Positions 12,401-13,067 of a DNA stretch of 27,343 bases are shown piece by piece. Source of the stretch: a virus. Its lineage: Duplodnaviria; Heunggongvirae; Uroviricota; Caudoviricetes. The DNA lies in IMG/VR virus record IMGVR_UViG_2695420565_000003; one strand, given 5' to 3'. The position numbers were made by a program, and so were the translations under genes. How positions within the stretch are numbered: position 1 is the first letter of the stretch; each line of letters begins with the position of its first letter. The notes beneath the pieces were generated by a model. The model had not been told where the DNA came from. It did no database searches and worked only from the letters and a program-made list of their open reading frames with translations.

Positions 12401-13067
12401 TCATCTTGAATCTGGTAGCGTCGGCGGGTCTGATAAAGGTTTGATTCGCGGTAACGTTTCTGGTGGTAGTTGGGCTAGCTGGCGTGACCGTGCTTCCGGT
12501 TTGCAAGTTGATTGCCCCCAATCAACCAATTCCGCTCATAACATCTGGAAAGCTACACATTGGGGTCAATATCACATTGCGGCAATGGGTGTGCATGTTC
12601 CTAGCGGTACTATCGGTAATGCTACAGTTAAACTTCATGTTCATGACGCTGGTTTTGACTTTAACGCTGCGGGTGATTTTAGCGCAGGTCGTAACGGTAG
12701 CTTTAACGATGTTTACATTCGCTCTGACTCCCGTTTGAAGATTAACAAGGAAGAATTACAGGACGGTGCATTAGAGAAAGTAAACTCACTGAAAGTCTAC
12801 ACCTACGATAAAGTTAAATCTCTTTCCGATGACACGGTGATTAAACGCGAAGTAGGTATTATTGCTCAGGATCTGGAAAAAGTATTGCCGGAAGCAGTAG
12901 GTATTCAATCCACAGAAGATCCAGAACAACCGGAAGCAATCAAGACTATTTCTAACTCTGCTGTTAATGCCTTGATTATTAAAGCTATGCAGGAAATGGA
13001 CGCCAAATATAAAACACAGATCGAAGCATTACAGAAAGAAATTGCCGAACTGAAAGCAACTAAATAA
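9453..13067 (+). CDS. L-shaped / side tail fiber (1204 aa) with a C-terminal intramolecular chaperone (peptidase S74-type) domain
   Basis: N-terminal tandem coiled repeats. The C-terminal ~113 aa start at 'S|DSRLKINKEEL' and include 'VGIIAQDLEKVLPEAV', matching the autoproteolytic chaperone of T5 pb1 / K1F endosialidase as I recall it. Confidence 0.85.
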   Translation: MQSIQFKRTQTAGKKPTPEQLSQGEIALQLADHVIYTKDKNNNVVQISVSPEKHAELNTKVDNNKTSTDRVIASNKQEAANNLASAKAELNQTITTKDTATNKRIDATNTTVSNLTQTVTANKTDADTKINNLTGTVSANKTAIERTVAANKSDADSKHAALTKTVTDNNTAINNKVNTTNTNVSNLTKTVTANKTDADNKISSLTSTVAANKTAIEKTVSDNKKDADTKITNLTGTVNSNHTAINNKVDQNKSSTDAAIAAANKRIDGIEGSNDALYIKKNTNTKHGGYLLSKTANYLEDQTSRDLNYFGAFRTNGQDGLMDLTLNVPHSAGKAHGRGFTFRYASGGSRVETYGFDREGQKNFSYKMYHEGDKPTPGEIGAYTKAEVDKMFVKNVVMSVPNSSENVSAYFKLATATIPQNGRSVFFRIHGGNGYNVTAYDQVDVVEILLRSGNDRPKGLNVVAYRRNTNKDFEVFAVNTSGDNYDIYVKYQRYTDNVIVEYGKSVYVSLTVYDTPEATLIKPSVGVIGGRNVTLFNTENKRGVLSFDDNTQNSYDIVHLSNDRGTGRKYIRKFRSNYNEMIWHETVQGSTYRLATGSTDAQEILTVESSSSIAGTHKGNILSGRMLLNGGSNVITLRRPAGQSNHIAFQDNRTGDITRQGWIGYANADTNVFEWYSDVGGTSIRHHIDGQIELATGKTKRVYTNAQFISMNSDAYRMIYGNYGAFWRNDGDKVYLLSTAENDKLGGWNGNRPFIYDLTNGKVTLGGDGNEGALILERDSRAARFSNNVYIKKGFLTFDAGRSGSRDYIRFNHWGDSNNARDNVLYIEDSQGRHFSTERAMGTGALKANFLGDLEVGGKFTWGKNTGQSSFNCRVWGNDSRKQVLEFADESGWHFYTQRAGGPGTNEINFSVNGSIHSQGIATSGNIKITGPDIEFRRSGNKHIWFRDPDGLELGLMYCDDAGVIRFRGQKQAQTWKLADKMIHLESGSVGGSDKGLIRGNVSGGSWASWRDRASGLQVDCPQSTNSAHNIWKATHWGQYHIAAMGVHVPSGTIGNATVKLHVHDAGFDFNAAGDFSAGRNGSFNDVYIRSDSRLKINKEELQDGALEKVNSLKVYTYDKVKSLSDDTVIKREVGIIAQDLEKVLPEAVGIQSTEDPEQPEAIKTISNSAVNALIIKAMQEMDAKYKTQIEALQKEIAELKATK
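9780..10215 (+). repeat. Imperfect tandem duplication (~213 bp, ~71 aa unit) inside the fiber gene
   Basis: 'TNTTVSNLTQTVTANKTDADTKINNLTGTVSANKTAIERTVAANKSDADSKHAALTKTVTDNNTAINNKVNT' is followed by 'TNTNVSNLTKTVTANKTDADNKISSLTSTVAANKTAIEKTVSDNKKDADTKITNLTGTVNSNHTAINNKVDQ'. Confidence 0.6.

Follow-up and report, generated by a model that had tools for sequence, protein, structure and literature searches.

In RB49 and most T-even phages, the intramolecular chaperone (IMC) of the long tail fibre is removed and a monomer of the adhesin gp38 is then attached to the processed fibre (PMC9569957, PMC3157838, PMC6851490). In gp37 fibres of the T2, S16 and RB49 type, removal of the IMC exposes a docking face for this separate adhesin, and it is the C-terminal domain of gp38 that recognises the receptor, RB49-like phages included (PMC9569957). 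The base on which gp38 docks has been described as the ...DVYIR^SD junction of the fibre (PMC7917993), where ^ marks, here and below, a known or expected cut. A shorter form of the adhesin is represented by gp38 of RB43, which in 174 aa combines a T6-like N-terminus of ~50 aa with a novel specificity domain of ~120 aa, and host-range mutations map to this C-terminal domain (PMC3157838). A different arrangement is found in T5 pb1, in which the receptor site belongs to a bullet-shaped domain of the fibre itself and there is no separate cap (PMC4690869). Chaperones of this kind work with a Ser/Lys dyad in which the Lys follows the Ser by five residues, as in endoNF (S911/K916) and MyRF (S587/K592; PMC8326128) and in T5 (S1264/K1269; PMC4690869).

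The locus described here lies in a window of 27,343 nucleotides, which is the whole stretch of viral DNA that was analysed (Caudoviricetes, IMG/VR record IMGVR_UViG_2695420565_000003). The window encodes lambda-like proteins, namely a gpA-type terminase, a lambda-type portal, a fused protease-capsid protein, a tail assembly chaperone, a tape measure protein and a J-like tip. The gene order around the fibre, which is conserved in relatives, runs from a tail-tube paralogue through the fibre, the tail tube, a gp38-like protein and the chaperone to the tape measure protein (Table 1). The prophage carrying this fibre was found in 55 of the 5426 complete E. coli genomes; apart from the fibre, the window closely matches no sequenced phage. 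GC content is uniform across the window (40-46%), with no compositional sign of a recent import of the fibre. Neither the fibre, nor the gp38-like protein, nor either of the tube proteins falls in an NCBIfam family. In this lambda-like siphovirus prophage of E. coli the 1204-aa protein is probably the side tail fibre, an assignment that is made jointly with the chaperone, the cut and the cap considered below. The J-like central fibre (1259 aa) has an Ig_GpJ_C receptor-binding domain of its own and no S74 domain, and the motif SD.R.K occurs a single time when the window is translated in all six frames; on these grounds a second S74 fibre was rejected as the partner of the gp38-like protein.

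Table 1. Positions of the fibre, its domains and the neighbouring genes in the window (aa, residues of the protein named; IMC, intramolecular chaperone)
Feature	Position (nt)	Strand	Residues and size	Remarks
Tail-tube paralogue with C-terminal extension	8537-9370			Directly upstream of the fibre gene
Read-through extension of tube protein				Sequence TNEELPLPEPEP...
Tail fibre precursor ORF	9453-13067	+	3615 nt, 1204 aa, 132.2 kDa	
Predicted mature fibre	9453-12722	+	aa 1-1090, 119.6 kDa	Ends ...GRNGSFNDVYIR; cut site placed by homology
Asn/Thr/Lys-rich repetitive stretch			fibre aa ~55-280 (about 230 aa)	
Gp34_trimer domain			fibre aa 658-756	Within the gp37-like shaft
Last 12 residues before the predicted cut (GRNGSFNDVYIR)	12687-12722	+		Predicted gp38-docking base
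R1090 codon	12720-12722	+		
Predicted scissile bond R1090^S1091	12720-12725	+		Between nt 12722 and 12723
Whole IMC	12723-13064	+	aa 1091-1204, 114 aa, 12.67 kDa, pI 4.96	Followed by the stop codon
Peptidase_S74 Pfam core	12723-12899	+	aa 1091-1149	
Catalytic Ser1091 codon (tct)	12723-12725	+		Residue invariant in homologues
D1092 codon	12726-12728	+		
Catalytic Lys1096 codon (aag)	12738-12740	+		Ser+5; residue invariant in homologues
Long C-terminal helix of the IMC	12954-13061	+	aa 1168-1203, 36 residues	In the AF2 model; expected to build the trimeric coiled coil behind trimerisation
Tail tube gene	13125-13598			Between the fibre and gp38-like genes
gp38-like short adhesin ORF	13773-14279	+	168 aa	Predicted to cap the processed fibre as a monomer
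Gp38_N attachment domain	13788-13901	+	aa 6-43	

The C-terminus of the fibre is almost certainly an S74 chaperone with intact catalytic residues. It reads ...GRNGSFNDVYIRSDSRLKINKEELQ...VGIIAQDLEKVLPEAV...KATK, just as quoted in the initial annotation, which had proposed a self-cleaving chaperone of ~113 residues (~13 kDa) within positions 12700-13067 and a search with the peptidase S74 model as a check. In that search PF13884 (Peptidase_S74, 'Chaperone of endosialidase'), with a curated cut-off of 22 bits, matched the whole fibre with 52 bits (E 8.5e-14) and the C-terminal 155 aa with 57.7 bits (E 1.5e-15; both against Pfam), and the Pfam core of the domain covers profile positions 1-57/58. 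The proposed domain is thus borne out, its size having been right to within one residue and its interval containing the complete IMC and the stop codon. The IMC forms the last 114 of the 1204 residues, with gp37-like sequence and the Gp34_trimer domain upstream of it.

Homologues were collected with the last 205 aa as query, and all of them carry PF13884. In two overlapping alignments of these homologues (21 and 27 sequences), S1091, D1092 and K1096 are invariant down to 33% identity, and Y1118, D1119 and K1120 are almost invariant, as is the motif GIIAQ..LPEAV. In MyRF, the residue aligned with Y1118 is Y615, which contributes to cleavage (PMC8326128). When a profile of the 27 homologues was searched against the PDB, it matched S16 gp37 (6f45_A, E 1.2e-15) and the MyRF ICA (7dc3_A, E 2.3e-10), as well as the tail fibre 8jov_1 and the GA-1 neck-appendage chaperone 3gud_A. 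The fold agrees with these matches and with that of the IMC family, in which a long C-terminal coiled-coil helix follows a small alpha/beta body bearing a beta-hairpin: an AlphaFold2 monomer model of aa 1000-1204 has pLDDT values of 86-95 across most of the IMC, and its top PDB matches in Foldseek are solved IMCs, namely 7dc3 (MyRF ICA, E 1e-4), 3gud (GA-1 gp12) and 3gw6 (endoNF, E 0.025). The active site of these enzymes is completed by a sensor Arg from the neighbouring chain of the triple beta-helix (Arg897 in endoNF, Arg1250 in T5); R1080, which lies within the invariant GRNG motif, is a candidate for this role in the present fibre, in an upstream region that is not alignable to endoNF or T5. 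Since the S74 chaperone has an intact Ser/Lys dyad, self-cleavage and release of a fragment of ~13 kDa would be expected.

From N- to C-terminus, the fibre consists of a gp37-like N-terminus (the resemblance extends over ~50 aa), the repetitive stretch, a gp37-like shaft with the Gp34_trimer domain, and the IMC. The distal two-thirds of the fibre is a T-even gp37 fibre of the RB49/T2 type, nucleotides 868-3546 of the fibre gene having 77-81% DNA identity to gene 37 (distal long tail fibre) of RB49, Phi1 and JSE. The gp37 protein of Phi1 (RB49-like, Krischvirus) has a homologous IMC and the same tip and junction, GRNGSFNDVYIR^SDARLKINKEE, but no counterpart of the ~230-aa repetitive stretch that follows the conserved N-terminus here. 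The NDVYIR^SD junction of the fibre also resembles that of T2 gp37 (NVYIR^SDIRLK), and the S16/T2 tip (PDB 6F45) has a homologous IMC, with the S16 cut directly before SD. RB49-like phages are T4-like myoviruses, whereas the virus carrying the present fibre is a temperate lambda-like siphovirus.

T5 pb1 and K1F endosialidase (MEROPS S74) had been named in the initial annotation as the models for the domain. The resemblance holds at the level of the Pfam family and of the fold: the present domain shares with both proteins the family, the Ser+5 dyad and a terminal location in a trimeric fibre, and the endoNF fold is among those matched by the IMC model. It does not extend to direct sequence similarity, be it of the single sequence or of the profile. 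A phmmer search for similarity to T5 pb1 or K1F endoNF with the C-terminal 155 aa (E<=10) matched S16 gp37 only, the 27-sequence profile reached neither protein in the PDB, and 4UW7/4UW8 or any other T5 pb1 chain was absent from the PDB matches of the whole protein, the C-terminal fragment and the profile. In sequence, the fibre is closest to the gp37 distal fibres of T-even phages rather than to T5 or K1F.

A gp38-like protein is encoded downstream of the fibre. Its attachment domain matches Gp38_N (PF21721) with 56 bits against a cut-off of 25 (E 3.9e-15, Pfam), and the protein matches PHROG family phrog_1121, 'tail fiber adhesin' (E 1.7e-34). The first ~50 residues are 50-70% identical to gp38 of T2, fPS-2, RB3 and hundreds of other T-evens, and gp38 N-termini were matched in 398 phage records when the gp38-like protein was used as a tblastn query. 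In gp38 of the S16 type, three conserved Trp residues fit into as many pockets of the gp37 base. Two of them, W10 and W23, are kept in the present protein, and the third docking Trp of the T-evens is Asn38 here and Met in the homologue from Stx phages. A phmmer search of the gp38-like protein against PDB sequences did not match S16 gp38, the relationship being detected by the Gp38_N profile alone, and an AF2 model built from a shallow alignment of 8 sequences was unusable (mean pLDDT 36.8).

The remainder of the protein is of another kind than in S16 and T2. The polyglycine-sandwich specificity domain of their gp38 was looked for, and the C-terminal domain has no glycine-rich motifs; in RB49, too, the receptor domain of gp38 is of a polyglycine type of ~180 aa, whereas the whole protein here is of the short type. 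Full-length matches of 35-45% identity were obtained with short gp38 proteins of 165-171 aa from RB43-like/Kanagawavirus phages (PEi20, Kosakonia 305) and Stx podoviruses (75/02 Stx, P13374), and the C-terminal domain aligns with those of PEi20, Kosakonia 305 and the Stx phages. The Kanagawavirus match (35%) is encoded directly 3' of gene 37, and the Stx podovirus match (45%), a 'tail fibre adhesin', directly 3' of an IMC fibre with the junction NDVQIR^SDKRNK. Judged by its sequence, the gp38-like protein belongs to the short (RB43-like) subclass and not to the T2/T6 subclass. A literature search for a gp38-type adhesin on a siphovirus prophage returned nothing specific among its top results.

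Because a gp37-type fibre and a Gp38_N protein are encoded together, the cap, and not the stretch of fibre directly preceding the cut, would be the tip. The initial annotation had placed the tip in that stretch, following the T5 model, and this position is not supported for a fibre of the T2/S16/RB49 gp37 type with a Gp38_N protein encoded nearby. On balance, the gp38-like protein appears to cap the processed fibre and to form its tip. In all seven related prophages examined, GRNGxFNDVYIR^SD and the 168-aa gp38-like gene are present together, and GRNGxFNDVYIR is invariant in the seven fibres although the shaft is mosaic, the part preceding the motif falling to 16-38% identity.

Several observations speak against this cap. 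One is that the gene is not adjacent to that of the fibre: in Kanagawavirus and Stx phages the short gp38 gene lies directly 3' of the S74 IMC fibre gene, whereas here, unlike in S16 and T2, the two are separated by the tail tube gene, together with a terminator-like hairpin. Displacement of the adhesin gene from gene 37 is also seen in RB49 (PMC3157838). Other points are that only two of the three docking Trp residues are retained, that the C-terminal domain is near-invariant, and that in L008, one of the relatives, three small orphan paralogues come after the DVYIR^SD fibre and the 8.9 kb examined lacks a gp38-like gene. The link between the DVYIR^SD junction and a gp38-like gene is therefore not absolute; two further relatives (L009 and L010) are too short to inform on this neighbour.

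The principal alternative would follow T5 pb1, which does work in this way (PMC4690869): the receptor site would lie in the fibre just upstream of the cut and be unmasked by the exit of the chaperone, and the gp38-like protein would be a non-receptor protein or a conserved cap only. The pattern of variation among the seven relatives is the one expected if specificity resides in the fibre, with aa 601-1090 of the shaft highly mosaic, aa 901-1090 the most variable segment (16-92% identity), and the C-terminal domain of the gp38-like protein almost invariant, the N-terminal domain of the latter also varying; the relative that has no gp38-like gene near its fibre points in the same direction. This alternative is nevertheless unlikely, given that sequence and profile searches of the PDB detected no similarity to the receptor-binding domain of T5 pb1, that the junction is of the type described as a gp38-docking base (PMC7917993), that the Gp38_N protein is kept in every one of the seven relatives, and that receptor recognition is the task of gp38 in the RB49-like phages, which are the closest relatives to have been characterised (PMC9569957).

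Elements of both arrangements may be combined. T-even gp38 has hypervariable loops, and a C-terminal cap domain that is near-invariant on a mosaic shaft reverses this pattern; it suggests that host specificity may reside at least partly in the fibre, and the initially proposed tip would then be rescued in part. The C-terminal domain of RB43 gp38, to which host-range mutations map, differs in this respect from the near-invariant domain here. A wider reading, tentative and itself rather doubtful, is that the whole two-component tip of the T-evens (gp37 shaft, S74 chaperone and short cap) was moved to the side fibre of a lambda-like siphovirus, with roles that may be inverted, the cap being nearly invariant and specificity residing in the hyper-mosaic shaft, and with the tube paralogue upstream of the fibre possibly supplying an attachment ring.

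As regards the cut itself, the bond severed is very probably R1090^S1091 (nt 12722/12723), which would free 114 aa of 12.67 kDa. This bond is preferred because the characterised members of the family that were checked are cut N-terminal to the catalytic Ser. In T5 pb1 the bond cut is Thr1263^Ser1264 and the Ser departs with the chaperone, likewise in K1F as reported in the same work (PMC4690869), and mass spectrometry places the cut of MyRF at P586^S587 (PMC8326128). In S16 gp37 the cut falls at DLNVS^SDRRIKK; for the fPS phages it is predicted at DVYIR^SDGRLKI, that is, Arg^Ser (PMC7917993), in a junction almost identical to the NDVYIR^SDSRLKI of the present fibre. The released IMC of GA-1, as crystallised (3gud_A), starts with SDERHK. 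In the initial annotation the cut had been placed between Ser1091 and Asp1092 (12725/12726), one residue too far downstream. The sole precedent for a Ser that stays on the mature fibre is the phi29 appendage, on which it was modelled with weak support (PMC4690869); with the T5, K1F, MyRF and S16 cuts and the fPS prediction all falling N-terminal to the Ser, and with the GA-1 chaperone leaving with it, a Ser^Asp cut is highly improbable.

That the locus is a relic, the prophage being defective or the IMC being an uncleaved trimerisation module that stays on the fibre, is very unlikely: some members of the family are decaying, as seen from a frameshifted terminase in a close relative (strain PI7) and an interrupted fibre gene in L008, whereas in the window the ORFs for terminase, portal, capsid, fibre and gp38-like protein are all intact, the catalytic residues Ser, Asp and Lys do not vary among the homologues, and the IMC is 76-100% conserved among related prophages.

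With the cut at R1090^S1091 and the gp38-like protein as cap, maturation of the fibre could proceed as follows. The C-terminal coiled coil of the IMC would align three chains in register and template the upstream triple beta-helix, as in the MyRF and T5 structures. After correct folding of the trimer, Ser1091, activated by Lys1096, would attack the Arg1090-Ser1091 bond, and a 12.67 kDa chaperone starting with SDSRLK would be released. The mature fibre of 1090 aa would then end in ...NDVYIR, presenting a flat trimeric base, and one copy of the gp38-like protein would cap this DVYIR base through its N-terminal Gp38_N domain, leaving its C-terminal domain of ~120 aa as the extreme tip.

The correct cut site and the cap matter for expressing, engineering or retargeting such a fibre, as a construct with the wrong end residue, or one made without the cap protein, is unlikely to yield the native tip. 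Good descriptions already exist of the S74 domain, of how it works and of its association with gp38, and the present locus adds an example to them and not a principle. Its interest is modest and comes from the presence of this tip on a temperate, lambda-like siphovirus and from the modules exchanged with Stx and T4-like phages: the locus documents that fibre modules have passed between E. coli phages of three kinds, T4-like myoviruses that are virulent, Stx podoviruses, and lambda-like siphoviruses that are temperate.

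The fibre gene is strongly mosaic. When the window is taken as reference and compared with the loci of six related prophages (L002, L003 and L011-L014), fibre identity ranges by segment from 16% to 100%, and the blocks in common with the window vary from relative to relative. The conserved parts are the first 60 aa of the protein, the 12 aa that immediately precede the predicted cleavage site, and the intramolecular chaperone (IMC). The long stretch that follows the conserved N-terminus and leads up to the gp37-like shaft contains repeat units, such as TVTANKTDADxKIxxLTxTVxANKTAIExTV, is variable between relatives (57-100% identity), and is absent from Phi1 gp37, the distal tail fibre of an RB49-like phage. 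The coordinates of the features are collected in the table.

Features in and around the fibre gene (window coordinates, except for L008)
Feature	Position	Sequence or stop	Remarks
Tail-tube-like paralogue	8537-9370		One side of fibre gene
GC-rich hairpin	9404-9421	GGGAGGTTAACGCCTCCC	Short intergenic space, one side of fibre gene
Asn/Thr/Lys/Asp-rich long stretch	9615-10290		Fibre aa ~55-280
GC-rich hairpin	13075-13093	CGGGGGACTAGTTCCCCCG	Short intergenic space, other side of fibre gene
Tail tube gene (tail-tube-like paralogue)	13125-13598	TGA	Other side of fibre gene
In-frame open extension after tube-gene TGA	13596-13724	TNEELPLPEPEPLPEHEAVVIPEVEEVTAKATAKRGRKAKN	41 codons
L008 region described below	4922-5867		Related prophage, Logan SRR19667677 contig

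The two tube-like paralogues that flank the fibre gene both match PHROG 158 and show 29% identity to each other across 162 aa (E 1e-15). The upstream paralogue has an additional C-terminal extension of about 115 aa ending in KPTPAEIGAVAKTDRIDFGEY, a motif that recurs within the fibre as GDKPTPGEIGAYTKAEVD, and its product may be an attachment ring for the side fibre. The downstream paralogue, the tail tube gene, is followed by an in-frame extension closed by a TAA directly 5' of a terminator hairpin (13729-13753). The tube-gene TGA is retained in all six related prophages, which represent four distinct variants; the frame past it is open for 39-41 codons in them, and the two separate indels found there, of 6 nt and 3 nt, are both in frame. 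This frame is a candidate for programmed UGA read-through, which would yield a tube protein with a C-terminal extension.

Terminator-like sites are more common in the fibre-gene region than in shuffled controls (11 vs 4.0 +/- 2.4). At the window edge, positions 1-107 are 100% identical to the end of IS629 as it occurs in many Stx-converting phages, and the window therefore begins within an insertion sequence adjoining the prophage.

P0021, a 303-aa E. coli homologue of the fibre C-terminus, is an odd chimera, in which an N-terminal T2-type gp38 part (Gp38_N and the beginning of the glycine-rich domain) is fused to WAANGDFTSSASVYCNDVYIR|SDRRLKIN and a complete S74 chaperone; either genuine recombination or an artefact of assembly or annotation could account for this gene. 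In the related prophage L008, the fibre gene is interrupted (844 + 329 aa), yet its end, NDVYIR|SDRRLK plus the IMC, is retained. Three small paralogous ORFs of 111, 101 and 100 aa, with the common motif W..DIPNGW ... YFKF and no match in Pfam or PHROG, follow this fibre gene, and no gp38-like gene was found between the L008 tube and chaperone genes. Fibre-adjacent accessory genes appear to be exchanged as cassettes.
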